From: Candidatus Saccharimonadota bacterium | Lineage (GTDB): Bacteria > Patescibacteriota > Saccharimonadia > Saccharimonadales > Saccharimonadaceae | Assembly: GCA_017480095.1 (NCBI GenBank) | Contig: JAFVBG010000002.1 | Coordinates: 3,728-67,727 of the forward strand | Reading direction: 5' to 3' | DNA length: 64,000 nt | Made by a program: the position numbers and the translations under genes | Shown: positions 3,087 to 57,158 of the stretch, one piece after another | How the letters are laid out: each line of letters starts with the position of its first letter | How positions within the stretch are numbered: the first letter of the stretch is position 1 | The notes under the pieces: generated by a model | Database searches by the model: none | What the model saw: the letters and a program-made list of their open reading frames with translations, nothing else | What the model was told of the DNA's origin: nothing

Positions 3087-3768
3087 TCCTGATACCTCCA
3101 GTCCTGAATGAAATATGTTTTTCTATAGAGTTATAGGGCTCATGAATAAACCACATTTCGTCATTATTAGCCGCGGAAACAAGTATATATGTTTTGTACT
3201 TATTATGGTCTGGTACCTTATTGATTATGGAAAGCAATTTCGCTTCGTCTATATATGCGAAACTGAACATGAACAGCCAGTATTCTTCAAAAAACTCATA
3301 TTCCGACATTAGCTTTATTTTTTCGGCAATTTTTTTCTCCATAATTTCATAAATGTTTTGAGTATCAAAATCAATAAGCCTACCAACTCCCGCGTCTCTG
3401 ATTTTTCCTGCAAAAATCCCCTTCTTGTCGGCTTTCTTTATGGTTCGCTTGAAGTCTTCGAGATCATTAGTCTTCTTATCTACTTCATCAATAGTTTTTA
3501 GGCTTATCATTTGGTTCTCGTCAATTAATCTTGTAACTTCAATCCCCAAATTAAGATCCTCACTTTGAATGTCCGGCCTCTCGATGTTTTTGCCATGTTT
3601 AAAATACTTTTTCATCATATGTTTACCATAAAGAACTGGTGTAGAAGAAGATGCTACTAGATGCGGGAGTGGTGGTGCATTTTCTATATCGTAAGATAGT
3701 GAGGTTAGAAGCTCGAAAGCTTTGTCTTCTGAATAATCTTTGTCCGTTAGGACTTTGTGCCAATCCAT
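3079..3768 (-). CDS. Hypothetical protein with PD-(D/E)xK-like motif, inserted between hsdM and hsdS
   Basis: AT-rich 230-aa ORF translationally coupled to both neighbours; ERPD-x8-GIEVT resembles a PD-(D/E)xK core. Confidence 0.6.
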   Translation of the reverse strand: MDWHKVLTDKDYSEDKAFELLTSLSYDIENAPPLPHLVASSSTPVLYGKHMMKKYFKHGKNIERPDIQSEDLNLGIEVTRLIDENQMISLKTIDEVDKKTNDLEDFKRTIKKADKKGIFAGKIRDAGVGRLIDFDTQNIYEIMEKKIAEKIKLMSEYEFFEEYWLFMFSFAYIDEAKLLSIINKVPDHNKYKTYILVSAANNDEMWFIHEPYNSIEKHISFRTGGIRNE

Positions 3769-5385: not shown

Positions 5386-5475
5386 TAAGAACACCTTAAA
5401 ACCCGGCCACTACCGCGAGAAAAGGGGCGCATATAGTGCTACGTTTTCCACAACTATTACATTCTGGTATTTCTG

Positions 5476-5673
5476 CTAAAACTCTCGCCACTCAGTGCTT
5501 TCGCTACTCGGATTCGTTATAGCTATTTGCTTGAATTGACAATCGCCAGGATCTAGGACGAACTCGCCATCCTTGTATTTCTGCTCTGCTGTTTCGTAGG
5601 CCTCATCAGCGCTGTTAGCTTCGATTTCGAAGTCCTTAGCGACGGTTTCTTCTATCGTAATTGTATATTTCAT
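5476..5673 (-). CDS. DpnD/PcfM-like protein
   Basis: MKYTITIEET...EIEANSADEAYETAEQKYKDGEFVLD matches the recognised DpnD/PcfM pattern. Confidence 0.75.
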   Translation of the reverse strand: MKYTITIEETVAKDFEIEANSADEAYETAEQKYKDGEFVLDPGDCQFKQIAITNPSSESTEWREF

Positions 5674-5796
5674 GATCGGATCTTATGATCATTTCGACTA
5701 AAAGTCCACAACAATTTACCATTTCATGTCAAGAAAAAATCCTACCCCTATTTTCTGCACAATAACTTTCAAAACCCGATTGTGTCCAAGTGGATA

Positions 5797-6261
5797 CTAT
5801 CTATTGACTAAATGATAGAATGTTTTGTTAGAATCGTTGCCGTAATGGTTGATATCTTCCGGCTCGGCCCAAAGCGAAAGCTTGTGGACGCGCCATTTGC
5901 CAATGAAAAACATCTGAACTATCGCTTCATTCACGTCGCGGTTATTTAGCGCGCGTGGAATGTATGCGAGGGAAAAGTAGTACCATTTATCGTCTTCGGC
6001 ATCTAACCTCGCAAAAACGCGCTTTCCACGCCCAAAAAGGCGCACATCGAAGCGCTGTGCTAGTGTTTCCAGGGAATAAGTCTTTAATTCGTGTATCGCG
6101 TCGCGGACGGGCGATTCCATTAGTTCCATACGCTCAAACTTATCATAGTCGCGCGAGTTGAACCGGCCGTTATGTTCGAGCATGAAATTTTCAAGTTGTC
6201 GAGCGGTTACCGGTATTGGCTCGCCAGGTTTAGTTTTCTTGAATGGGTGGCGTTTTGCCAT
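5797..6261 (-). CDS. Hypothetical protein
   Basis: 154-aa ORF with AGAGG RBS and an upstream TGATATAAT; no recognised motif. Confidence 0.6.
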   Translation of the reverse strand: MAKRHPFKKTKPGEPIPVTARQLENFMLEHNGRFNSRDYDKFERMELMESPVRDAIHELKTYSLETLAQRFDVRLFGRGKRVFARLDAEDDKWYYFSLAYIPRALNNRDVNEAIVQMFFIGKWRVHKLSLWAEPEDINHYGNDSNKTFYHLVNR

Positions 6262-6401
6262 AATAGCCTCTTTTCTTTAGAGATTGCGCCTGTTTAGGCG
6301 GCGATAGTTTCCAAAGCTATACTTACCAAAATATTTTTGCGTTCTTACATTATATTTTGTATGTATATATAATTATTATATCAAGTAAATAAAGGAGAAT
6401 T

Positions 6402-7184
6402 ATGGAATACAAAGAAAAAGCTCTTGGTACCGGAAAGGTACGCGTCTACACTTTCGGCGACCTAAAATTGCACGCTTACGAAACCGGCGACGGCCTCGCG
6501 GATGAATGCTATGTTATTGAATCTGCTAATGAGCTCGTTGGTATTGAAATCCCGACTTTTGAAGCCAACATTAAAGAATACAAGGATTATATCGATACTA
6601 TCGGCAAACCACTCAATAATGTGTTTATTGATCTGCATCCGGTCGGCGCTAGCTTCTTTGATGGTGTTAAATTCATCGGTACAAAAGGTGCCAAAGAAGC
6701 AATCGCAAACGGCTCTACTCGCGGCACACTCAATGCACTTTCTGGTATTCCGGGTTTCGATAGCAAAGATACTGCAGAAATCTCTGAATTTGTCGATGGT
6801 AAAACTACGATTGACGGTGTTGAGTACGAAATCAAAGATTATGGCGATGAATACGATATCATCATTCCGGCGATGAATGTGGTCTATACCCATATGCTCG
6901 GCTCCATTGTTCATTCTATTGTTGGTGGCGTTGCTGGTGCGGACGCTATGCTCGAGAAACTCAATGGCTACAAAAAGGCTGGTTACGATCTAATCCTAAC
7001 CTCTCACTTTGTTCCGGAAGGTCAAGAAGCGGTTGACGCAAAGATTGCTTATATTGAGAATGAGAAGAAGATTGCAGGCGAGTCCAAGGATGCTGAGGAA
7101 TTTAAGGCTAAGATGAAAGAAGCTTATCCAGATTACCTCGGCGAGAACTATCTTGATATGTCCGCTGGGTTCTTCTTCGCCTAG
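6402..7184 (+). CDS. Metallo-beta-lactamase-fold-like hypothetical protein
   Basis: AAGGAG RBS; degenerate MBL-like segments (VFIDLHP, ILTSHFVPE); resembles a conserved gut-Firmicutes family. Confidence 0.55.
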   Translation: MEYKEKALGTGKVRVYTFGDLKLHAYETGDGLADECYVIESANELVGIEIPTFEANIKEYKDYIDTIGKPLNNVFIDLHPVGASFFDGVKFIGTKGAKEAIANGSTRGTLNALSGIPGFDSKDTAEISEFVDGKTTIDGVEYEIKDYGDEYDIIIPAMNVVYTHMLGSIVHSIVGGVAGADAMLEKLNGYKKAGYDLILTSHFVPEGQEAVDAKIAYIENEKKIAGESKDAEEFKAKMKEAYPDYLGENYLDMSAGFFFA

Positions 7185-8149
7185 GAATGGCGCTCATTAT
7201 TAAATAATGAGGTTAAGGTGTCGTCGGTCTTCGGCGACGCCTTTTTCTTGCCTTTAAGAGCGTTGTCTTTGCGAATCGTAACTATGTCGTGCGGCGTTAG
7301 CTCGCCAATTAGCATAGTTGAATCTGGATTATGGCGGCGCATTTGCTCGTTAATTAGATCTTCATTAAAGTTGGCGTAACAGTATTTACATCGGTGTCCA
7401 CAGGAGTTATATTCGCCAATATCTATCATCTGCACGCAGTGGCATTTACGTTCTTTGCGCGCTGTCCATTCTGGAAAATCTTTGCCAGTTAGCTCTATGG
7501 CTTTAGCGTGTGAAAGGCATTCTTCACCACAAAAACCATATTCAACGAGGTTCCTATCTTCAAAACAAGTCTGGACGGTCTGATTATGCTTTTTGGCCGA
7601 GGCGGAAAATCCCTCGCCAAGAGCTCGATATTCTTTCTCAGTGAATTCATGAAATCCGAGTTCACGTTCGTTCTTGCGGACATTAACGTATAAGTCGATG
7701 AAAGAAACGATAAAATGATTAACGACGCCGTCTAGCTCGGCGCAAAGCTTGTCAAAAGCTTTAAGGTGGTAGTCTAGCGTATATTTATCACTAATAAAGA
7801 TAGGATCGTAGCGAACATACATTCTGTCTGGACCAATCATTTTGGAAATCTTCTTAATATTCTCGATTGTGCGTTTCTTGTCCGGAACGTACGGTTCGAT
7901 ATCTTTTAAATAGCCGGTGAGGGTGACGTGAAAAAGAAAGGGCTGTTTAATTTCTGGCAAAAAGTCGATAATCGGTTCTGGATTTTTAGTGCAAAAGACG
8001 AAAGCGTCGACATCTTTAAACTGGATACGGCTAACTTGTGTAGGATTAAAAGGGTTGCGAACATCGACGAAGCCCTCTTTATAGCGTTTCTTGAACCACT
8101 CCGAATAAAAGGCAATAACGTCGGTGCGGCCAGAAACATTAAGAATCAT
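7181..8149 (-). CDS. DUF1848 domain protein (radical-SAM-like)
   Basis: MILNVSGRTDV.AFYSEWF N-terminus; C-terminal CGHRCKYCYAN (CxxxCxxC). Confidence 0.88.
   Translation of the reverse strand: MILNVSGRTDVIAFYSEWFKKRYKEGFVDVRNPFNPTQVSRIQFKDVDAFVFCTKNPEPIIDFLPEIKQPFLFHVTLTGYLKDIEPYVPDKKRTIENIKKISKMIGPDRMYVRYDPIFISDKYTLDYHLKAFDKLCAELDGVVNHFIVSFIDLYVNVRKNERELGFHEFTEKEYRALGEGFSASAKKHNQTVQTCFEDRNLVEYGFCGEECLSHAKAIELTGKDFPEWTARKERKCHCVQMIDIGEYNSCGHRCKYCYANFNEDLINEQMRRHNPDSTMLIGELTPHDIVTIRKDNALKGKKKASPKTDDTLTSLFNNERHS
7215..7247 (+). terminator. Intrinsic terminator of the MBL-like gene (overlaps the 3' tail of the DUF1848 gene)
   Basis: 12-bp stem AAGGTGTCGTCG/CGGCGACGCCTT followed by a T-run. Confidence 0.7.
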
Positions 8150-8469
8150 AGTTGTTCCTTATAATATTCGCCAAATTTTTTCATCGCTTCGATAGTAGGC
8201 CATAGGGATTTTCCTAGCTCGGTCATACTGTATTCTACCTTTGGGGGAATTTCTGGGTAGACTTTACGCGCTACTAGGCCGTCTTCTTCGAGAGAGCGTA
8301 ACGCGTCTGTTAAAGACTTCTGCGTAGCGCCAAGACTACGTTGTAATTCATTAAAACGCCATGGTCTAGCCATGAGGTTACGGATAATTAGAAGTTTCCA
8401 TTTGCTGCCGACTAATTGAACGGTAGTTGCTACTGGACATTCTGGCAGATCTTTAGCTTTTCTTTTCAT
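8146..8469 (-). CDS. HxlR family winged-helix transcriptional regulator
   Basis: CPVATTVQLVGSKWKLLII...RFNELQRSL...VYPEIPPKVEYSMTELG; ATGA overlap with the DUF1848 gene. Confidence 0.93.
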   Translation of the reverse strand: MKRKAKDLPECPVATTVQLVGSKWKLLIIRNLMARPWRFNELQRSLGATQKSLTDALRSLEEDGLVARKVYPEIPPKVEYSMTELGKSLWPTIEAMKKFGEYYKEQL

Positions 8470-25512: not shown

Positions 25513-26898
25513 CTAAAGACCAGAGACGGACGAGACACTATCGGCAGAAACCGTAGTATTGGTCGCTGTGACGCTCGTGCCAGTGTAAGTGACTTTGCCA
25601 CCATTACTGCCAGAGCGTCCCCATTCGGAAGTACCCTTAGCCGAGATAAACGGCTGATCTGGGCTGAAATTAGCCGTAACGTTGCTAAGTTTAATGACCG
25701 CATCGGTGTTCGTGATGAAGAAGAACGGAGTAGTCTTATAGACACTAGAGGTGTCGAGAATGGTAAAAGTGGAGTTTTCGGCAGTAAAATTACCCGTACC
25801 GACTGAAGCGTCGCCCGACATACTCTGATAAATCATCACACCAGCATTATCGACGTTATTGCGATTGCCAATCCCATTGGCGGAGAACTGCGAGTTCTTA
25901 ACTGTAATGCTATTTTTACCCTCTACCACCGCAATCTGCGCGCCTGTAGAAGTGCCAGTCGAATCAGAAACAGAGATAGTACCAGTAGAATAAATCAGTG
26001 GTGAGCCACTACCTGCGGTGGAAAGCTTCATGTTGGAAGCCGTCACCACGCCGGCGCCACGGTCGGTAGCAAGCGAAGCACAAGAGCCGCCGAGCGTAGA
26101 GATTTCGGAGTTGGAAATGGTGATTTCCCCCTCATAGGTGGCGTGCATACCGCGAGAATTATCCTTGGTGGTGGCCACGGTGACTTTATCAACCGTGGCT
26201 TTGCCCTTGTTTGTTGCAACTACGGCGTTGGCGCCAGAAACAGTGGTAGAAATCGTGCCGCCGTTCATGGTGAGCGTCGAACCTTCGCCAACTACCACGA
26301 TAGCCGAGTTTGTACCATAGAAGCTATAATTATCACCACGCCCCTGGAAATTTTCGGAGCCAGATTTGCTCACGGTAACATTATTAAGCGTCAATTTACC
26401 ACCATTAATGACGAGAAAAGTATTCTGATCGTCCGAAGTGGAGGCGAACTCGCCATTTTCGATAATAATTTCGGTGCCATCAATGACATAAGCACCATTA
26501 TAAGTGATACTCTTGCCACCAATCGTAGCGGTGACAGTGCCAGAATTGAGAGTTATAACATTACCACTTGCATCTTTGATTGTTGCCTCGCCAGTTGCCG
26601 TATCACTCGAAGAGCTGTCGGAAGAACCGCTAGCGCCTGACCCTTGGCAGTTAGTATCTGAAGAATTGGTTTCACAGTTGTCCTTCTGTTGCCTATCTGA
26701 AAAATATTTTAATCCCCAGACTACGCCACCAGCTAGGACAATGGCGAGCGCAGCAAAAATCAGGGTTAGACCGACGATTTTACTCTTATTTTTGCGAGGT
26801 TGTGCTTCCCCACCCATTACTAGACCATCAGTGACAAGGTTAGCGTCCGCACCGATTGGCACCTGCATCCCATCTGGGATGTTTTTGTCTTCTTCCAT
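25513..26898 (-). CDS. Membrane-anchored Gly/Ser/Thr-rich putative beta-helix/adhesin-like protein
   Basis: Single TM at about aa 40-65, then repetitive beta-strand segments (YGTNSAIVV, ANAVVAT, SLATDRGAG). Confidence 0.65.
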   Translation of the reverse strand: MEEDKNIPDGMQVPIGADANLVTDGLVMGGEAQPRKNKSKIVGLTLIFAALAIVLAGGVVWGLKYFSDRQQKDNCETNSSDTNCQGSGASGSSDSSSSDTATGEATIKDASGNVITLNSGTVTATIGGKSITYNGAYVIDGTEIIIENGEFASTSDDQNTFLVINGGKLTLNNVTVSKSGSENFQGRGDNYSFYGTNSAIVVVGEGSTLTMNGGTISTTVSGANAVVATNKGKATVDKVTVATTKDNSRGMHATYEGEITISNSEISTLGGSCASLATDRGAGVVTASNMKLSTAGSGSPLIYSTGTISVSDSTGTSTGAQIAVVEGKNSITVKNSQFSANGIGNRNNVDNAGVMIYQSMSGDASVGTGNFTAENSTFTILDTSSVYKTTPFFFITNTDAVIKLSNVTANFSPDQPFISAKGTSEWGRSGSNGGKVTYTGTSVTATNTTVSADSVSSVSGL

Positions 26899-26943: not shown

Positions 26944-28017
26944 TTAACTACTGATGCGATGAATCTGGTATTGACCGTTCTGCGGGAATAGAGTCAGAGT
27001 AGAGCCAACTGAATATGTGCCAGAATTATAAGCTTTTCCGCCACTAGAACTCGTATTATAGCGCAGAGTTGCATTTGTATCTAAGATAAGTAAGTCGTTC
27101 TCGGTCAGACTATCTGCGGATGTTACCGAAGATTTATATCCAGTAATCACCACAAAATGCCTACTATTTGGCTCAAAACTATAGGCTACCTTGGCAATCA
27201 CTGGCTTACCGGCGTTTATCTGGTTGTAAATCTCTTTTAGCAAGTCTTGCTTACTTGATGTATTGTATGGATTTCCTTGCACAGTGTGACCAGCTCTACC
27301 GGCAGAAGCATCTTTATCACTAGCAACTTTCTCCCCATAGTAGAGATTGGCCAAATAAACACTTGAGAAGTTAAGGCATTTACCATTATCTGGTGATTCC
27401 CTTAGAGTGCTGTAGGTTTGACAATTCCCACTGGCATCGCACGATTTCTTATCTTGAGCAATTTTCTTCTGATAAACATACTGCTGATAGTCTTTTACTG
27501 AGATAGCCGTATCTGCAACACTCCAATTTTCACCCATCAAGCTTAGTGAAGTAGTTTTTCCCTGTGGACCAGAAGGGGTATCTGGAGTGACTGGAGTAGA
27601 TTGTGAAGAATCTGGATCGGCTTGACTACCAGGAGTTGTGCCTGGCGTAGTGCTTTGGCTGCTTGGGGTTTGGCTCGAAGGAGCCTCTTCTACAACTGGG
27701 CAAGAGCTAGTGTTTGACGTAAGATCGGACTGCAAAATGCCACCAGGAATCAAGAACTGCAAGACTGCAAACATGACGCCATAGACCAAAATCCCAATCA
27801 CTACCTGAAAAATACGATTTTTAGCCTTTGCCATTTTCACCTCATTCCCAGAGGAAGTAAGATACATGATGCCGGCAATAGTGATACCTAGTACTGCTAG
27901 TACACCCACGCCAGCGGTTAAGATTTTGATGATGAGGGCTAAAATCTTAAAGACAGAGCCGCCGTCGCAAGAGTCACAGACCTGCCCAAAGAAGATTGTG
28001 TCGATGCAATATTGCAT
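26944..28017 (-). CDS. CPR-type VirB2/TrbC-like pilin domain fused to a C39-like (papain-fold) peptidase domain
   Basis: N-terminal ILTAGVGVLAVLGITIAGIMYLTSSGNEVKMAKAKNRIFQVVIG; Ser/Thr/Pro linker; GKCLNFSS...INAGKPVIA...RHFVVITGY...LILDTN. Confidence 0.7.
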   Translation of the reverse strand: MQYCIDTIFFGQVCDSCDGGSVFKILALIIKILTAGVGVLAVLGITIAGIMYLTSSGNEVKMAKAKNRIFQVVIGILVYGVMFAVLQFLIPGGILQSDLTSNTSSCPVVEEAPSSQTPSSQSTTPGTTPGSQADPDSSQSTPVTPDTPSGPQGKTTSLSLMGENWSVADTAISVKDYQQYVYQKKIAQDKKSCDASGNCQTYSTLRESPDNGKCLNFSSVYLANLYYGEKVASDKDASAGRAGHTVQGNPYNTSSKQDLLKEIYNQINAGKPVIAKVAYSFEPNSRHFVVITGYKSSVTSADSLTENDLLILDTNATLRYNTSSSGGKAYNSGTYSVGSTLTLFPQNGQYQIHRISS

Positions 28018-28019
28018 GA

Positions 28020-28721
28020 TTAATTAGCCTCCGTTTCTAGCGGCGTTAAGACCTTAAATTCTTCAGCTCTGGTCATAGATTCAAAAAGCTCCAGTTTTGT
28101 AACTATATCATATTTATATCCATAAGAGTTCTCTGTATATGGATAGGTATAGTAAAGTGCATCTACCGGACGTCCGCCGTAAACAATAATAGTCTTGCCT
28201 TCAGTGGTGAACGGATAGCCACCTTTAGCATAAATCACAGCAATCTGACCGTTATCTAAATAATAGTTCAAGATATTGGAGTTCATAGCCCAAAGCGTAG
28301 TATAATTATCCCCAATAATCTCAATCTTTCCGTCATCAATTTTGAGGCCAAAGTCCCGAGCAATCTCTTCTGGACTCATATTAGAGTATTTTGACAACTC
28401 CGTATTAGAAACATAATCCGAATGAGGTTCCCCTTTTAACAACGCAGTCAAGTGGGCGTTCAATTCTTCCGTCTGGTTAACAGCATCACTATACCCTGCA
28501 AGGTCAACGGCACCATCTTCGGCAATATTTTCATTATCTGGCTGCTGCTCGGCGAGGAATACCATCGCCACTGCTGTGCCAATAATCACCAAAATACTGA
28601 ACATGAAGACCAGAAACATGGTCGGGGTGCGTTTTTCTGATTGAGAAATCCCTAGCTGGCGCTGATAGGCCTCGGCGCGAGATTCGATAATCGAGACCGG
28701 TGCGGTAGATTGATTCTGCAT
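28020..28721 (-). CDS. Single-TM protein with a degenerate C39-like domain
   Basis: YLDNGQIAVIYAKGGYPFTTEGKTIIVYG resembles L..G.PVI.....FT..GHFIV..G but has K at the catalytic His. Confidence 0.5.
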   Translation of the reverse strand: MQNQSTAPVSIIESRAEAYQRQLGISQSEKRTPTMFLVFMFSILVIIGTAVAMVFLAEQQPDNENIAEDGAVDLAGYSDAVNQTEELNAHLTALLKGEPHSDYVSNTELSKYSNMSPEEIARDFGLKIDDGKIEIIGDNYTTLWAMNSNILNYYLDNGQIAVIYAKGGYPFTTEGKTIIVYGGRPVDALYYTYPYTENSYGYKYDIVTKLELFESMTRAEEFKVLTPLETEAN

Positions 28722-28727
28722 ATTCCC

Positions 28728-29555
28728 CTATTTTTCGTTGTGAATCTTAACCTGCTTAAACGGAATCTCGATTTTACGGGCAGCAAATTCATCAAGAATA
28801 GTTCGGCGTAACATTCGCTGCATCTTGAAGTGTTTGTAAGGCGCACACGGGCATTGAATCCGCCATTTCACGCCATTTTCAGTCAGCCCAGTGATGCCTA
28901 ATACCTTGATTTCACCCCTGGCATCTTCAATCGTACCGTCGAGTTTCTTCTTAACCGCATCGAGCGCCTTCTCAATATCTTTTGAATCGTGTTTATAGGC
29001 CACCTCGACATCAACGATGGCCAGAGTATTGTCCTGGGAATAATTGACCAGAGTACTAAGATTATGGTTAGCAATCACCTTGATTTTACCCCGGAAATTA
29101 CGGATTTTGGTAGTTTTTAGCCCTAAGAAGATGACGCGACCACGAAAACCATCGACTTCAATCAGATCGCCGACCTGAAACTGGTTCTCCGAAAGGATTG
29201 AAATCCCCGCAATAATGTCTTTAGCGAGATCTTGCAAAGCGAGGCCGAGAATAGCAGTGGCAATGCCAAGTCCAGCGAAAATGGAGCTGACATCCACGCC
29301 ATAAACCGCCAAGATAATCAGGATAACGATGAGAGAAATGACGTATTTTAAGATGTTTGAGCCGAGCGTATTGACGGTCTGCAAGCGCTGGTAGTTGGTC
29401 TGCCCCACCTTGTCTGGACTTAAGCGCAGAAAGAGGCGCAAACCGTTTGATAATAGCTTATAGACAAAAAAGCCCAGGATAATGTAAATAATCGGCTTGA
29501 GAATCAAGTTCCAGTCGAAGTATTCAATTCCTAGACTTTTGAGAAAAGAATCCAT
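28728..29555 (-). CDS. mscS: Small-conductance mechanosensitive channel
   Basis: GLALQDLAKDIIAGISILSENQFQVGDLIEV, IGLKTTK-like motif, IEIPF. Confidence 0.92.
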   Translation of the reverse strand: MDSFLKSLGIEYFDWNLILKPIIYIILGFFVYKLLSNGLRLFLRLSPDKVGQTNYQRLQTVNTLGSNILKYVISLIVILIILAVYGVDVSSIFAGLGIATAILGLALQDLAKDIIAGISILSENQFQVGDLIEVDGFRGRVIFLGLKTTKIRNFRGKIKVIANHNLSTLVNYSQDNTLAIVDVEVAYKHDSKDIEKALDAVKKKLDGTIEDARGEIKVLGITGLTENGVKWRIQCPCAPYKHFKMQRMLRRTILDEFAARKIEIPFKQVKIHNEK

Positions 29556-49961: not shown

Positions 49962-50070
49962 AGTGGTTTTACTCCTTATGAACATTATATCATATTTTGA
50001 CTATGCCAGCAAAGTTATAATAGTTCCCTAATAATTTAGATTGGTGTATGCAGCATGAGATCACAGGGGG

Positions 50071-50964
50071 GTTCAATTATACGATTGTTTTACACGATTC
50101 TCAAACCTCATCAAATAAATCGGCTCGAATTGTGCGGTTCAATTATACGATTGTTTTACACGATTCTCAAACAACCCAAGTTCATTCGCACAAGGGTTTG
50201 ATGTTCAATTATACGATTGTTTTACACGATTCTCAAACTCTGGTGATGTGGTGGTGTAGCACTCGATGGTTCAATTATACGATTGTTTTACACGATTCTC
50301 AAACATTGGAGGTAACATGGTAAAACGTAACGATGTTCAATTATACGATTGTTTTACACGATTCTCAAACCGGCGGCTGGCGTAATCTGTGCCCACAAGT
50401 GTTCAATTATACGATTGTTTTACACGATTCTCAAACCAGAGACTCGTGAATAGATTATTAAAAGACGTTCAATTATACGATTGTTTTACACGATTCTCAA
50501 ACAGGTGCTGGTGTTCCATAACGGTCGTGTCCGTTCAATTATACGATTGTTTTACACGATTCTCAAACGCCTTGCCTTTACTCACACCCTTGACAATCGT
50601 TCAATTATACGATTGTTTTACACGATTCTCAAACTGTGATGGCTCGATTATTTAAAACTCGCCAGTTCAATTATACGATTGTTTTACACGATTCTCAAAC
50701 AGAAATGGTTCAGCAATCACATCGCATTCTGTTCAATTATACGATTGTTTTACACGATTCTCAAACGGATTGACATTGAAGCAAGTCGGAAGGTTGGTTC
50801 AATTATACGATTGTTTTACACGATTCTCAAACGCACACAGGCTAAATGTAATTGTTTTTGGTGTTCAATTATACGATTGTTTTACACGATTCTCAAACTA
50901 TGCAATTGATAAAAGCCACTAGACCCGCGTTCAATTATACGATTGTTTTACACGATTCTCAAAC
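50071..50964 (-). CRISPR. Type II-A CRISPR array: 14 identical 36-nt repeats, 13 spacers of 30 nt
   Basis: Repeat on the minus strand GTTTGAGAATCGTGTAAAACAATCGTATAATTGAAC with a 66-nt period from 50071 to 50929. Confidence 0.99.
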
Positions 50965-51775: not shown

Positions 51776-52092
51776 AAAACTACCATTCTTTCGTCAGTTT
51801 GAATTGCGTCTGAAGCGTCTTCCCCCACTACAAATCGCATACTAGCAAACTGCCTCTCCGTCACAACCATAAGCTGGACAATTCCTTTTGGCGGCTTATT
51901 CTTTTGAATTAATTGTTCAACTTTATCCACAGCGTGAGCATTGATACATATTTTCGTATAGATTGATTCTTGCATCATTATAAAACCTTCGTTTATTAAA
52001 AACTTACGAAACCAACGATAATGCCTTCTGTCCATTGAGGTTTCTGTTGGCAAATCAAACATCACTACAACGCGCATAAATCTATAGCTCAT
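51772..52092 (-). CDS. cas2: CRISPR-associated endoribonuclease Cas2
   Basis: MSYRFMRVVVMFDLPTET...GFIMMQESIY. Confidence 0.96.
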   Translation of the reverse strand: MSYRFMRVVVMFDLPTETSMDRRHYRWFRKFLINEGFIMMQESIYTKICINAHAVDKVEQLIQKNKPPKGIVQLMVVTERQFASMRFVVGEDASDAIQTDERMVVL

Positions 52093-52957
52093 ACCAGTTC
52101 AATATTTTAGATGGATCCTTTTCTTCCAAGGCCAGAAATATACTACGTACATAAATTCCAATTGCGTTATTTAAATATTGCTTGGAATCGACGATTTTCA
52201 CCTGCGAGTTTAGAAGATTCACCACTTGAATCTTTTCCTCTTTTTCAAATATAGTAAAATCACATTTGTAGGCGAAGTAGTCAATGATAGGGCGAAAACT
52301 TTCCATCAAGTCGGAGCCAAGATTAAAAGGGTTGCTAACACTATTGTGCCAAATCCCAATTTGCGTAAGGTATCCGGACGCAGAAATCTCTCGATTAAAA
52401 CATGACAGCAAAACTGTGTAACCATAGTTTAATACCGCATTGCGTATATCATCGGAGTTCCTATAAAAGTCTTCGTCAAAAAGCGCATTAAAATATACTT
52501 TTGCGGCATGCCCTTCGCGGTTAGTAGAGTCTCCAGGTTGCACCTCTGCGGTATATTTCATTAATTGTTCTGCTTTTGCATCTTGCCCAACCTTCTGCAG
52601 AACTTTAGCCTGGTTAGTTATTTTTTGAATGATAATTTTTTGCCAAATTTTTTCTTTAATATCTTGCGACCATGCAATCTGATCTCGGATTTTTCCACTT
52701 GAATCATAACTACCATGTACCGGCATCAATTCTGAGACGGGATTATGATTGGTATCACAAAAGATAACTTTAACTTTTTGCGCAATTAGTTCAGACAACA
52801 AGTATGCCGTAATTGAAATTGCAGTTGTTTCACAAATAAGAACTGAAATGTCTCCCAAGTGAATCCGTTTTTCTCCATCTTCACTACGAACAACCAAGAA
52901 GCCCATCTTATAGTCTAATTTTGACCGGCTCGACACCACCACTACGCGCCAAGACAT
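52082..52957 (-). CDS. cas1: CRISPR-associated endonuclease Cas1 (type II)
   Basis: MSWRVVVVSSRSKLDYK, NREGHAAKVYF, LNYGY, DLMESFRP. Confidence 0.97.
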   Translation of the reverse strand: MSWRVVVVSSRSKLDYKMGFLVVRSEDGEKRIHLGDISVLICETTAISITAYLLSELIAQKVKVIFCDTNHNPVSELMPVHGSYDSSGKIRDQIAWSQDIKEKIWQKIIIQKITNQAKVLQKVGQDAKAEQLMKYTAEVQPGDSTNREGHAAKVYFNALFDEDFYRNSDDIRNAVLNYGYTVLLSCFNREISASGYLTQIGIWHNSVSNPFNLGSDLMESFRPIIDYFAYKCDFTIFEKEEKIQVVNLLNSQVKIVDSKQYLNNAIGIYVRSIFLALEEKDPSKILNWYEL

Positions 52958-52958
52958 T

Positions 52959-55900
52959 TTATTTTCTCGGTTTGCAAGTTTTTAGATCAATGACCTCTTC
53001 AAAAAGTCCAGTCGGAGATTGATTGATGAGAAAGGCGGAATCATATCTAAAAACATTATCGTTGAATTTGCCTTTACCAACAGTTCCAGCCTTAGGCACA
53101 AATTTAGAAAGATCAGCAGTGGTTGGGCCACAATTAAACACGTTAAGGAAATTATGCAATGTGAGCACTTGATCCTTTATTTCTAGCTCTTTAAAATCTT
53201 GAGCATGTGCTTGTATTTCATCAATCTTTCCTCCAAGCTCCGGCATTTTTCTGTATGCTTCTAATTTCTTTAGAAAAACATTAAGAAGTTCTTCATTTTT
53301 AGCCTTAGTTATGCCATCGCGTTTCTCATCAATGCAATATTTTCCTCGTAGTTCGATATCTTTCTTGGCCACACTTTCAATCTTTTTGACATAGGCACAC
53401 TCGTTTGCATTGAATATGACCTGGACCGCATGATAGAATCCTATTGCAACATCGCTCCCCTTACGTGAAATATGCAATGGAAAACCGTTTATTCTCATTA
53501 GTGATTTATAACCAATTACTGGAATAATGACCCTCCCATCTTTATAGTTTCTAGCGATATATTTGTCTAGTTCGTATTGATTGATTTGTGGGATTGGGAC
53601 AATTCTACGCTCAATGATACCTTTTCTCCCTACGCGTTCAATCAAGGAGAAGTGTGCACCTTTAAGCGAGTTATATCCACCGTATTTCTTCGGGTCCATA
53701 CCCTTTTTAGCCGGTAAAATGCCTTCGACGTTATCCGCCTTACGGACTAATTGCAAATCTGAAATTGCCCCCGATTCAACATAGTTCATTCTCGTCCAAA
53801 GAATGTCGTTGCGCTTCAGCGTATTGCTTACAATTTTAATTGTATCGGCATAATTCCAGCCATACATAATTGGCCCATTGCCCGGCTTATCCCGCCAAAG
53901 CACCCATGGATTAACTGACCAGTTTGCTTTTTGCTCTTCTTGGTTTCGAATCCACTTGTAAGGGTCAGCCGTAAACGTCTCATGTAACGCATTTCCAACA
54001 ACAATGTTTAAATACGCGTCCTTGGCGTGATGAAGGTCGTTGATCGCGCGCACTTTAATAAATTCCGGCATTTCTGGATGCAACAATCTATTCCCATCAT
54101 ATTTATCATACTGTTCTTTAGAGAACCAATGACGAAATTCCGAAACCTGCGATGCTTTACTCATTACTACTTTTGTATGTGGGTAGGCCTGCTGGAGTAA
54201 ATCTCGTATGGCTTTAATTGATTGGCTAGTTTCTACTAGCTGCCGCGCAGCAAAATTGCCCAGTTCTTCAGGCGTGAGTGGATTTGCGCGCGTTAGTCGA
54301 AGATACTTTTCTTTCGTAATGAGTTGATTACCAAGCAGTAATCCCCAGAAGCCATGTTGATTGCTGCGAATGCTATCTGATATAGGATAAGTGTTTGTTT
54401 TCTCCCGGTTTAATTCTGCCTTGACGAGAACCAAATTGCGCGTAATGCTATCATCCTTGGTTTTTGAGCGTGGATAGATGTGATCAATATCATACAAGGT
54501 TGTATTATTCAAATCTTCCAGGTTGATTGGCGTGCCACTGTAGGCGCATTTACCGAGCTGGGTAAAATACAAGTAAAGTTTCTTACTTTGCAAATCACGA
54601 TCTTCGTAACTATTTAATTCTTTTAAAAGTTCATCATATTCACCGTCTTTATTGATAGACTTATACAAATCCTCTAATTGAGTTTTACGGGACAGCTTAT
54701 AATTCCCTTTTTCCTTGGCGTCCTCACCGCGAGTAACCTCCAAGAAGATTTTCTTTGGTGCGGTTTTCTCGACCTTGACAAGTTCATTGACAATTTTAAT
54801 GGTCTGCCATACTGTGCGCTTGACGGCCGGTGAGCAATATAGATTGTTAACGTCTTGGTATGTAATTTTGGTTTCTTTGGATTTTTTCGGTGCATTAAAC
54901 TCATCTACAGCCTCAAAGAATCCAGCGCCTAGTAGTTCCATTAGATTCATATTTGTTTCATAAAGCGCCTCAATAATTGTATAATCAATACCGTTGATTT
55001 TTGCACGGATCCCGTTTAAGAATGTGCCAGAAAACTTTCCCCAGTCTTTTAGCGATAGCTTAGCTAGTTTCTTGGCCTCTTCCGTCGAGCATCCTAATAC
55101 CTCTTCAATTTTAGGTGATAAAATTTTTCGTTCTTCGCCAAGCACCGTGATTAAATTAATGGCTTCTTCAAGACTCTTCTGAGAATACTTCTTTGTATAA
55201 TCATCACCAAGAATCTTCCTAAAAGACAGATGCGTGGAAAGTTTGGGTAAAATCTTAACTTCTGATGTGCCAGCCAGTTCATCCTCTGGCGAAATGATAG
55301 AGTTTGCCACCAGAATATTGCGCAATTTCTTCAAAGTAATATTTCCTGACACTTCACCACTGGCAAAAATTTGGTCAAAGATGCGTTGCTTCAGCTGGGC
55401 ATCTTCGATCCGGTAGCCATTAATTTTGAGATTGTTAATCTCGTTTAGCACCATATTTTTTTGATAGAGTAGAGATGACTTCGGTAGTACATCTTCGCCA
55501 ATTAGATAGGTACACTGATTAGCCATACGCTGGATAAAGTTATTTGCTCTGGCATCCAACCCCACAAGCTGATTAAAATTCCATGGATAAATAAGTTCTT
55601 TAATCTCCTCGTCTGCCCATGAAAACTCACTTTTACCCCCTTCTACAATTGCACCATCCTTATTAAACTTGCGCTTGACGAGTGGACCACAATAGTACGG
55701 GATTTTAAAACTGTGTATACTCTCAATCTTTTTAGAAATCGTGTTATGTCTTTCGTCTTCGTTTTTATTGATTGCCCCAAACGCAGGGTAGTCATTTTCC
55801 AGCCTATTTAGAATCTGGCGTAGTTCATTGTAATGTAGCTGTTGCGGAATTGTACCTTTCGCCTGGCCACGCTGTTTTGGCAGAAGTTCAAAATCCTCCG

Positions 55901-57158
55901 CTCGTTCTATTAAGGATTTGATTTCAGGTGATTCTGGCAATGTTTCAAGTATTCTTTTGATTTCTTTGTTTATATCTTCTTGATTAACTGGCTTGGCAGA
56001 TTTTTGTCGCCCGCTCTTTTCCGTCGTGAACGCTTTGCCAATATACGCATTGTAATTTATCGTTTCGCCATTAGCTTTAAATATTCGTGCAAATAACTCT
56101 GGGTAAGGCTTTAAAATCTCCTTCAAATCTTTTAAATCTTTTTGGTGTTGATCATAGTTAGCAACCATTGCTTCGGAAATAGTTTTATGACTGCTCAATA
56201 AATTCGAGAGGATGCCATAATCATATATTTGCTTAGCCGAAATGATTAGATCCATACAACTCGTATCGCCAAGATCCTGTTCAATATCCGGTTGCTTTTC
56301 TTCAAAACTTCCGTTATCGAACGAATACTTCATTGCATCCTCATTTGGCTCGTCCACAAAGATTTTTTGAAGTGTGACGTTTGAGCCGACAAGAAGGCCG
56401 CATAGTTCGTCTTGACGCTTAGCTAGACTTTCTTCCATCTCATCGTCCTCAATAAAAATGAGCTCTTTTAGTTCTTTTCGTTTATCGCGTTTGCCTTTTC
56501 TCTTGTCTTTAACGATTTGTTCGACTTTCTCGGATACAGCATCAGAAATTCTAAAACCGAAGTTCTGCGCAATATTTATAAAGTCATCGAAAAGTAGATT
56601 AAAATCCGTATTACCGTCTTTGAGAGAACCTTCTATTAAAAAGTGCCCGCGATGTTTTAGAATATGATGGACCGCTAAGAAATAGAGCCGCAAGTCAAAA
56701 TGCTCTCCGTCGCAAAATTCAGTTTTTTCTGCATTACCCTTAATAATCGCATCCCTAAGATGCCAAATAGTTGGAAAAGCTTTATAGTATTCTTTATCCG
56801 TAAAAGTAGGTTCATTAAAAAGCGTATACTTATGCTGATTGATTTTTTCAGGACGATCTTCCAAAAGCAACATAGATTTACTGAGGCGCAGATAAAAATC
56901 TGGGTCAATTTTTGCCATTTCTGGTGCAAAAAGTTCCTCAAGAAGTTTTAGTCGAGCATGAGCGCGATGCCCGCGGCGACGGGCCGACCGGTGAGCGCGA
57001 CGCTCGGCCGCAGTATCAGCCTCGTCGAAGAGACGAGCACCCCAAAGAGTCTTACCTTTGGCCCGAAGAAGGTTATAGTTTTCATCAGTAACTGCCCAAC
57101 CCACGGATGATGTTCCGCAGTCTAGGCCAATATAATAATCTCTTGCACTTTTTGACAT
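52959..57158 (-). CDS. cas9: Type II-A Cas9, 1399 aa
   Basis: RuvC-I IGLDCGTSSVGWA, Arg-rich bridge helix, RuvC-II IFLEVTR, HNH DIDHIYPRS, RuvC-III HHAKDAYL. Confidence 0.98.
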   Translation of the reverse strand: MSKSARDYYIGLDCGTSSVGWAVTDENYNLLRAKGKTLWGARLFDEADTAAERRAHRSARRRGHRAHARLKLLEELFAPEMAKIDPDFYLRLSKSMLLLEDRPEKINQHKYTLFNEPTFTDKEYYKAFPTIWHLRDAIIKGNAEKTEFCDGEHFDLRLYFLAVHHILKHRGHFLIEGSLKDGNTDFNLLFDDFINIAQNFGFRISDAVSEKVEQIVKDKRKGKRDKRKELKELIFIEDDEMEESLAKRQDELCGLLVGSNVTLQKIFVDEPNEDAMKYSFDNGSFEEKQPDIEQDLGDTSCMDLIISAKQIYDYGILSNLLSSHKTISEAMVANYDQHQKDLKDLKEILKPYPELFARIFKANGETINYNAYIGKAFTTEKSGRQKSAKPVNQEDINKEIKRILETLPESPEIKSLIERAEDFELLPKQRGQAKGTIPQQLHYNELRQILNRLENDYPAFGAINKNEDERHNTISKKIESIHSFKIPYYCGPLVKRKFNKDGAIVEGGKSEFSWADEEIKELIYPWNFNQLVGLDARANNFIQRMANQCTYLIGEDVLPKSSLLYQKNMVLNEINNLKINGYRIEDAQLKQRIFDQIFASGEVSGNITLKKLRNILVANSIISPEDELAGTSEVKILPKLSTHLSFRKILGDDYTKKYSQKSLEEAINLITVLGEERKILSPKIEEVLGCSTEEAKKLAKLSLKDWGKFSGTFLNGIRAKINGIDYTIIEALYETNMNLMELLGAGFFEAVDEFNAPKKSKETKITYQDVNNLYCSPAVKRTVWQTIKIVNELVKVEKTAPKKIFLEVTRGEDAKEKGNYKLSRKTQLEDLYKSINKDGEYDELLKELNSYEDRDLQSKKLYLYFTQLGKCAYSGTPINLEDLNNTTLYDIDHIYPRSKTKDDSITRNLVLVKAELNREKTNTYPISDSIRSNQHGFWGLLLGNQLITKEKYLRLTRANPLTPEELGNFAARQLVETSQSIKAIRDLLQQAYPHTKVVMSKASQVSEFRHWFSKEQYDKYDGNRLLHPEMPEFIKVRAINDLHHAKDAYLNIVVGNALHETFTADPYKWIRNQEEQKANWSVNPWVLWRDKPGNGPIMYGWNYADTIKIVSNTLKRNDILWTRMNYVESGAISDLQLVRKADNVEGILPAKKGMDPKKYGGYNSLKGAHFSLIERVGRKGIIERRIVPIPQINQYELDKYIARNYKDGRVIIPVIGYKSLMRINGFPLHISRKGSDVAIGFYHAVQVIFNANECAYVKKIESVAKKDIELRGKYCIDEKRDGITKAKNEELLNVFLKKLEAYRKMPELGGKIDEIQAHAQDFKELEIKDQVLTLHNFLNVFNCGPTTADLSKFVPKAGTVGKGKFNDNVFRYDSAFLINQSPTGLFEEVIDLKTCKPRK

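Follow-up and report, generated by a model that had tools for sequence, protein, structure and literature searches.

On the minus strand of contig JAFVBG010000002.1 (assembly GCA_017480095.1), within the 64,000-nucleotide stretch spanning positions 3,728 to 67,727 that was analyzed here and is referred to below as the window, two adjacent genes encode a single-pass membrane protein of 233 amino acids (geneA) and, directly downstream, a protein of 357 amino acids (geneB) in which a hairpin resembling the pilins of type IV secretion systems (T4SS) is joined through a linker to a C39-like cysteine peptidase domain, hereafter the head. The source organism is an uncultured gut or rumen member of Candidatus Saccharibacteria, a very small bacterium whose hosts are probably other bacteria: proteins identical or nearly identical to geneB are assigned to this group in GenBank, under the labels "C39 family peptidase" or "hypothetical protein," and related loci (loci being designated L, and proteins P, in what follows) derive from metagenome-assembled genomes of sheep jejunum and buffalo rumen. 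The features concerned, with the evidence that defines them, are as follows.

26944..28017, minus strand: geneB, fusion of pilin hairpin, linker and C39-like cysteine peptidase, 357 amino acids (open reading frame and Pfam).
27697..28017, minus strand: pilin-like module of geneB, aa 1-107 (near-invariant among paralogues with differing heads; helices of the model).
27562..27696, minus strand: disordered S/T/P/Q-rich linker of geneB, aa 108-152 (pLDDT, the predicted local distance difference test of the model; composition; break in the alignment).
26947..27561, minus strand: C39_2-like domain of geneB with predicted papain fold, aa 153-357 (Pfam, alignment and AlphaFold model).
27376-27378, 27157-27159 and 27079-27081, minus strand: codons for the predicted catalytic residues Cys214, His287 and Asp313 of geneB.
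28020..28721, minus strand: geneA, partner protein, 233 amino acids (open reading frame; a homologue adjoins 14/14 C39-like genes examined in the subfamily).
28548-28622, minus strand: transmembrane (TM) helix of geneA, aa 34-58.
28028..28032, minus strand: GGAGG ribosome-binding site of geneB, within the 3' end of geneA (sequence).
28728..29555, minus strand: mscS, small-conductance mechanosensitive channel (Pfam and NCBIfam), given as context and lying outside the module.

The stop codon of geneA (28020-28022) is separated from the ATG of geneB (28015-28017) by 2 nt, the GGAGG lies 10 nt upstream of geneB, and in other loci the homologous genes overlap by 4-11 nt. Only 6 nt separate the mscS stop from the geneA start; a sequence scan found no terminator-like site between mscS, geneA and geneB, and the only promoter-like site of the extended -10 type is found ahead of mscS. 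Judged from this arrangement, geneA and geneB are translationally coupled, and the three genes probably belong to the same transcript, the initial annotation having read the pair as co-transcribed. A search for RNA-seq runs that contain the locus returned none. The window copy is flanked by mscS and tsaB/tsaE, an order kept in the syntenic locus L001, and the mscS arrangement is absent from other loci.

The pilin-like module comprises an acidic, Cys-rich N-terminal tail, a first helix, a Lys/Arg-rich loop, a second helix, and PGG and SSCP motifs. In the AlphaFold model and the sequence, the two hydrophobic helices (about aa 21-54 and 59-91, or 20-54 and 59-89 as modeled) flank the basic loop, to which K61, K64, K66 and R68 contribute, and the N-tail and the segment following helix 2 are acidic. 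P91, G92 and G93 are invariant in the paralogue alignment and stand directly ahead of the stalk. Against the Pfam T4SS_pilin profile (PF18895) geneB scored 20.6 bits (E 4.7e-4), under the 26.6-bit cutoff, and against the NCBIfam Mbov_0395 pilin-like conjugal transfer family it reached an E value of 1.6e-4; paralogues whose module is 60-80% identical scored 26.4-30.2 bits on T4SS_pilin, several of them at or over the cutoff. The same profile matched 104 of the 140 nearest relatives of geneB at E <= 1e-3 (best E 1.8e-37), and for the family as a whole the pilin assignment is firm. An archaeal conjugative pilin matched the hairpin when the geneB model was compared with PDB structures by Foldseek, at E >= 0.07. 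An exhaustive search returned 5071 proteins matching geneB at E <= 1e-3, the best 150 of them nearly all through aa 4-100, and in a set of 151 close relatives the module was N-terminal with an extension of at least 120 aa in 90, C-terminal in 20 and unaccompanied in 34. Many relatives possess a classical signal peptide immediately before the module, and the N-terminus of the module is therefore placed outside, as in VirB2. The topology predicted for geneB is thus a hairpin with both termini outside, the basic loop in the cytoplasm, and the stalk and head extracytoplasmic.

Four Cys residues (C4, C14, C17 and C106) are invariant in the geneB subfamily and are predicted to face outward. They are encoded at window positions 27967-28008 (C4, C14 and C17) and 27700-27702 (C106), and they might staple the N-tail to the post-helix-2 segment through disulfides. 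The idea that a Cys in the N-tail and one after helix 2 are always found together, as a disulfide mimic of pilin cyclisation, does not hold in general, since all four are present in only 39 of 150 relatives.

Beyond the module, a region rich in Ser, Thr, Pro and Gln (about aa 95-152) is modeled with pLDDT < 50 over aa 91-152. The head that follows scored 30.0 bits (E 9.2e-7) against Pfam Peptidase_C39_2 (PF13529), above the cutoff of 24, and its relatives score 24-30 bits. Its candidate catalytic residues lie in the motifs KCLNF (C214), RHFVV (H287) and ILDTN (D313); in seven diverse relatives, the most distant at 23% identity, neither the Cys nor the Arg-His pair changes, and D, N or E occupies the third position, which fits what a papain-type triad tolerates. 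In the AlphaFold model of geneB (pLDDT 75-94 in the core, 64 overall), Cys214 opens a helix (211-227), His287 lies within a strand (282-295) and Asp313 follows a strand (309-312), the canonical positions of a papain fold. A C193-C199 disulfide loop in the head is probable. The top matches of the model among PDB structures were IdeS, Cpe1 (probability 0.85), IdeC, staphopain, bleomycin hydrolase and the PCAT1 C39 domain, all at E >= 0.07. The pilin hairpin, flexible linker and intact Cys/His/Asp that the initial annotation had proposed for geneB are therefore retained, as is its reading of the domain as C39-like; the match to T4SS_pilin holds for several paralogues at the level of the cutoff and for geneB itself below it.

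Sequence and profile searches of the PDB with geneB found no relevant relative, Foldseek comparison of the geneB model with the viral structures of BFVD gave noise only, phage and plasmid collections yielded no tblastn match to the head, and a scan of viral contigs found no relative; a region-restricted word search for the head returned one close homologue only. A classical C39 bacteriocin-processing peptidase was considered and rejected, there being no Pfam match to that family at E <= 1 and no adjacent ATP-binding cassette (ABC) exporter.

The module of geneB is found with many other heads. Hydrolase domains carried on it include C39_2, NAGPA, GDSL and other esterases, ELLD, Phage_lysozyme2, VanY, Amidase_6, GH114, NlpC/P60 and CHAP, so that, by domain annotation, the recognizable heads on the hairpin are almost all envelope hydrolases. 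The nearest homologues of geneB retain the hairpin with an esterase (P0006), an esterase plus a C39-like domain (P0004) or an NlpC/P60-like domain (P0007), and the alignment of relatives breaks at the linker, which marks the point where heads are switched. In locus L003 two fusion genes are 100% identical in DNA sequence over their first ~350 nt (6222-6570 and 8001-8350) and unrelated beyond that point, in the stalk; one bears an NlpC/P60-like head and the other an esterase plus a C39-like domain, and the 100 nt upstream of each are also unrelated. Identity of the anchor DNA with a sharp break at the stalk indicates that cassettes have been exchanged by recombination or gene conversion. These alignments describe a carrier, the hairpin, that is conserved while its C-terminal hydrolase heads are exchanged.

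The C39-like domain is itself found in varied company. It is fused to Phage_lysozyme2 in a protein of L011 that has no pilin module and in P0037, which combines pilin module, lysozyme and C39-like domain. With 42-44% identity (E about 1e-19), it also terminates long helical proteins, P0132 (L018 2791-4697) and P0160, encoded on AT-rich Firmicute contigs, of which L018 bears SpoIIP. Two small genes ahead of P0132 gave consistent, though sub-threshold, matches to WXG100/ESAT-6/YwqH-like families, and in L019 (1-2377) genes for head-bearing proteins stand in tandem with a paralogue carrying a different head. No match to the LXG profile was found for these Firmicute proteins; on gene content, those of L018 and L019 are probably polymorphic toxins of the type VII secretion system (T7SS). 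Because of the domain company that the head keeps, namely the lysozyme fusions and the other heads found on the module, the envelope, and most likely peptidoglycan, appears to be its target. As a separate observation, two genes downstream of the pair in L007 (9752-11956) and L006 (10378-11832), both from rumen or gut metagenome-assembled genomes, lies a gene whose large secreted product contains ricin-type lectin domains in repeated copies.

It is quite improbable that the head is instead a protein protease, directed at host surface proteins or at the pilin family's own Pro-Gly-Gly site after helix 2. Such a role would give a meaning to the invariance of P91, G92 and G93 just before the stalk, as classical C39 domains cleave after Gly-Gly, and the near fold matches do include the protein cleavers IdeS, Cpe1 and the PCAT C39 domain. 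However, no classical C39 match is obtained at E <= 1, the head is one of many alternatives on a module that also occurs alone or in other fusions without it, the wall is suggested by its fusion to a phage-tail lysozyme, and it occurs in pilin-free proteins as well. The same facts make pilin maturation, one of the roles suggested by the initial annotation, unlikely, since a head that is one of many interchangeable ones and that is found without a pilin (L011, P0132 and P0160) is not readily seen as a processing enzyme for its own anchor; of the other role that it suggested, host wall attack by a pilus-displayed enzyme, the part that agrees with the heads of the relatives and the lysozyme fusions is attack on envelopes by a pilin-anchored enzyme predicted to lie outside the membrane.

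The product of geneA is predicted to begin in the cytoplasm, with an N-tail whose last residues are Lys-Arg, to cross the membrane by a single TM helix (34-58) and to continue outside as an alpha/beta domain (aa ~75-233), in which the NSNILNYYLDNG motif is strongly conserved. Cys is absent from it, both of its His residues lack conservation in the family, and it has no invariant nucleophile candidate; geneA is therefore not an active peptidase of this class. Searches of Pfam, NCBIfam and PDB sequences and profiles placed it in no family, and Pfam at E <= 10 returned no peptidase family for six diverse homologues, the long forms of L008, L011 and L012 included. Alignment of the geneA family with the head by hhalign gave a probability of 0.1% (7+7 and then 14+27 sequences). 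The only piece aligned pairs LDNGQIAVIY with INAGKPVIAK, at the helix-strand junction before the His strand, and on this register Lys176 of geneA falls at the position of His287. Structural comparison points elsewhere: for the geneA model (pLDDT 73.6), about 33 of the top 50 Foldseek matches in the PDB are papain-like proteases, all at E >= 0.05, among them Cpe1, the PCAT C39 domain, CHAP, interpain, phytochelatin synthase, papain, AvrRpt2 and cathepsins. For both the geneA and the geneB models, the fold match of highest probability is Cpe1, and the order of secondary-structure elements in geneA is co-linear with that of the head. With moderate confidence, then, geneA may be regarded as a degenerate papain-like fold on the basis of its model. 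The initial annotation had ascribed to it the fold signature of the head with Lys in place of His; the weak structural matches agree with the first part, for which no sequence or profile link to C39 was found, and the protein is certainly no active Cys peptidase, although more is missing than one His, there being no Cys at all and no conserved His. The hhalign register may explain how the Lys came to be read as a replacement.

Homologues of geneA were sought reciprocally, in searches from the geneB side and independently from the geneA side, across those loci of the Saccharibacterial subfamily that could be examined. A homologue adjoins the C39-like gene in 14/14 pairs from 13 distinct loci, usually overlapping it by a few bases, with geneA first in 10 pairs and geneB first in four. 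Two convergent pairs of geneA and a C39-like gene lie side by side in L020 (1181-5907), one of the heads being accompanied by Phage_lysozyme2 as well, and they offer a natural test set of cognate versus crossed combinations. The partner also accompanies the pilin-less lysozyme-C39 protein of L011; no homologue stands beside the pilin-NAGPA fusion, and none on the upstream side, the only one visible, of the pilin-esterase fusion. Over nine loci, pairwise identities of the geneA ectodomain and the C39 head are correlated (Mantel r = 0.57, p about 0.002, with r falling to 0.42 when the closest pair is left out) and those of geneA and the pilin module are not (r = 0.12, p = 0.26), and mean identity is about 35% for head and partner and 55% for the anchor. 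By these comparisons it is the C39 domain, rather than the hairpin, that geneA follows and co-evolves with. In L021 (3351-5605), a fusion of pilin module, NlpC/P60-like domain and esterase has its own translationally coupled partner, a 158-aa single-pass protein that resembles geneA only in N-tail and TM helix, which suggests that partners too are modular.

Taken together, the observations lead us to lean toward interpreting geneB as a pilin-anchored, polymorphic, extracytoplasmic cell-wall cysteine peptidase and geneA as its cognate inhibitor or immunity partner, a reading that we hold to be slightly on the probable side. A hairpin of the VirB2/T4SS_pilin type would span the membrane so that its Lys/Arg loop faces the cytoplasm and its two ends face outward, and a stalk of about 45 residues rich in Ser, Thr and Pro would hold the C39_2-like head, with Cys214, His287 and Asp313, off the membrane. 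The head would cleave peptidoglycan peptides, or some other peptide bond of the envelope, either in the wall of a neighboring (host) cell or in that of the producer, and recombination at the stalk would exchange hydrolase heads on a conserved hairpin serving as carrier for delivery. The single-pass geneA, its ectodomain in the same compartment as the head, would bind and restrain the latter and so shield the producer's wall. Peptidoglycan as the substrate and inhibition as the mode of action of geneA are the parts of this scheme that we infer from context. The inactive partner had previously been suggested to be a regulator or receptor; a regulator is plausible and can be sharpened to an inhibitor or immunity protein, and a receptor finds no support.

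Several points count against this interpretation. The T4SS_pilin score of geneB falls under the cutoff, its alignment to Peptidase_C39_2 is confined to the His region (aa 252-297), and the E values obtained for the structural matches of geneB and geneA make both sets non-significant. Unlike many of its relatives, the geneB subfamily has no signal peptide, and export of the N-tail has to be assumed. Profile searches detected no T4SS genes within the 64-kb window. As to the partner, no geneA-like neighbor is found beside the Firmicute toxin-like proteins that have the same head, the co-evolution test covers nine loci only, and a partner-first gene order is common here, whereas most toxins of the Cpe1 type have the immunity gene after the toxin. 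Adjacency and co-evolution would, moreover, look no different if the partner were a dead paralogue acting as an activator.

The last possibility, in which geneA is a pseudo-enzyme that positions the head or switches it on, has a parallel in the activation of amidases by EnvC and NlpD, LytM factors that are themselves catalytically dead. The papain-like identity of the top fold matches of the geneA model, together with the co-linear order of elements, is what would be expected of a dead papain-like paralogue, and an obligate complex would account for the strict adjacency, the translational coupling and the co-evolution; the usual upstream position of the partner, unusual among immunity genes, can be read in the same way. 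However, the fold assignment of geneA is weak (E >= 0.05) and not accompanied by profile homology, and the head not only has a complete triad of its own but also occurs without geneA in the toxin-like proteins of Firmicutes. We regard activation or scaffolding as unlikely.

The pair might also be understood as a housekeeping autolysin of the VirB1/CwlT type that opens the producer's own wall for assembly of a T4SS or pilus, or for growth, with geneA limiting self-damage. In L003 the two fusion genes sit between genes for a VirD4-type coupling protein and a relaxase on one side and a TrbL_3/VirB6-like gene on the other. (Just upstream of them, at 5468-5986, lies a gene for a 172-aa protein that resembles a type IV pilin in its prepilin-type N-terminal methylation motif.) A TM anchor combined with a Cys-peptidase, joined by lysozyme in P0037 and L011, mirrors the organization of PrgK, TraG and CwlT (PMC12102498), and in Patescibacteria few classical VirB1 homologues lie close to virB4. 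On the other hand, the window copy is far from T4SS genes, between mscS and tsaB/tsaE, and the fast divergence of head and partner (about 35% against 55% identity for the anchor), the swapping of cassettes and a head shared with toxin-like proteins are traits of conflict systems. An autolysin of this kind is accordingly a doubtful explanation, of about the same standing as activation by geneA.

In Gram-positive conjugation the VirB1-type wall hydrolases combine a glycosidase with a Cys-peptidase (PMC12102498), and PrgK of pCF10, TraG of pIP501 and CwlT of ICEBs1 share with geneB an N-terminal anchor and a Cys-peptidase located, or in geneB predicted to be located, outside the membrane, to which P0037 and L011 add lysozyme. 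They differ in pairing CHAP or NlpC/P60 with SLT or muramidase domains and in being anchored by a simple TM helix. A T4SS gene cluster surrounds the L003 paralogues of geneB and not the window copy. None of these enzymes is known to have an anchor of the pilin type, a head of the C39_2 type, a dead cognate partner or cassette-like exchange of heads.

T4SS loci of Patescibacteria contain arrays of VirB2-like pilins (PMC12102498; PMC12857230). The module of geneB is similar to these in its two-helix hairpin and basic loop, in being recognized by PF18895 when the family as a whole is considered, in its occurrence in Saccharibacteria, and in having paralogues in a cluster of T4SS and mobile-element genes. 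The pilins, however, are small, stand alone, usually have a signal peptide and lie near virB4; geneB has no signal peptide, four additional invariant Cys, and a stalk with a 200-aa enzyme, and it is situated away from T4SS genes. Enzyme-bearing pilin modules are not described in the literature searched on Patescibacterial T4SS (PMC12102498; PMC12857230).

Polymorphic toxin and immunity systems, represented by Cpe1-Cpi1 (bioRxiv 10.1101/2024.12.30.630690; PDB 9L5U) and the LXG proteins of T7SS, offer the other obvious comparison. Alike are the conserved carrier with exchangeable heads, the sharing of a head by several delivery systems, and an adjacent, fast-evolving partner gene that co-evolves with it. 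The carrier of geneB is a T4SS pilin-like membrane hairpin in place of the known PAAR, Rhs, CdiA or LXG carriers, and its partner is usually upstream and anchored in the membrane; toxicity of geneB and its neutralization by geneA are putative. The targets also differ, Cpe1 acting on the cytoplasmic GyrB and ParE and the predicted site of action of the geneB head being extracytoplasmic. Lysins of phages that infect Gram-positive hosts, finally, include Peptidase_C39_2 among their catalytic domains (PMC8223927), with which the head shares the Pfam family, the Cys/His chemistry and the company of lysozyme-type domains; it differs in that no relative was found in the phage, plasmid or viral-contig collections and no sequence relative in the PDB.

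It is possible to envisage an extension of the preferred reading, the pilin-anchored wall peptidase with its cognate inhibitor, in which minor pilins with exchangeable heads co-assemble through their hairpins into an "armed" VirB2-type filament or T4SS platform that would cut the host wall at the point of contact, while head-specific, membrane-bound dead-protease partners would protect the producer. Such a T4SS-pilin-borne polymorphic effector and immunity system is put forward speculatively, and we think it rather unlikely that it is correct; the fusion may instead be tethered at the membrane or at the T4SS.

Two other elements of the window deserve mention. A 461-aa protein encoded 45 nt downstream of geneB (25513-26898) has one TM helix, a repetitive strand region rich in Ser, Thr and Gly, and no family match; it is 66% identical to its counterpart in the syntenic L001 and is not found in the remaining loci with geneA and geneB. 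Further away, an array of clustered regularly interspaced short palindromic repeats (CRISPR) occupies 50070-50964 (period 66, ~13.6 copies, the repeat including GTTCAATTATACGATTGTTTTACACGATTCTCAAAC) and adjoins genes for Cas1 (52082-52957) and a 1399-aa Cas9 (52959-57158), from which it follows that this Saccharibacterium has a type II CRISPR system.

The design represented by geneB and geneA is recurrent in Saccharibacteria and constitutes a variant of two known themes, the wall hydrolases of T4SS and the polymorphic effector/immunity pairs. Its significance lies in the place that T4SS occupy in these organisms. In the one Saccharibacterium that has been tested genetically, the T4SS and its array of VirB2-like pilins are essential for epibiotic growth, and the classical VirB1 wall hydrolases are mostly missing from Patescibacterial T4SS loci (PMC12102498; PMC12857230). 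Proteins that combine a pilin module with swappable envelope-degrading heads are candidates for the missing activity, and the armed-filament reading, if true, would supply a concrete cargo for the essential T4SS and pilin arrays of Patescibacteria. Each C39-like head has a co-evolving partner of its own, and pilin-module proteins and partners combined would amount to a new type of carrier for polymorphic effectors; the pair formed by geneA and geneB is small and readily testable. The head family, moreover, ties Saccharibacteria to toxin-like proteins of gut Firmicutes, suggesting that members of rumen and gut communities draw on a shared pool of weapons.

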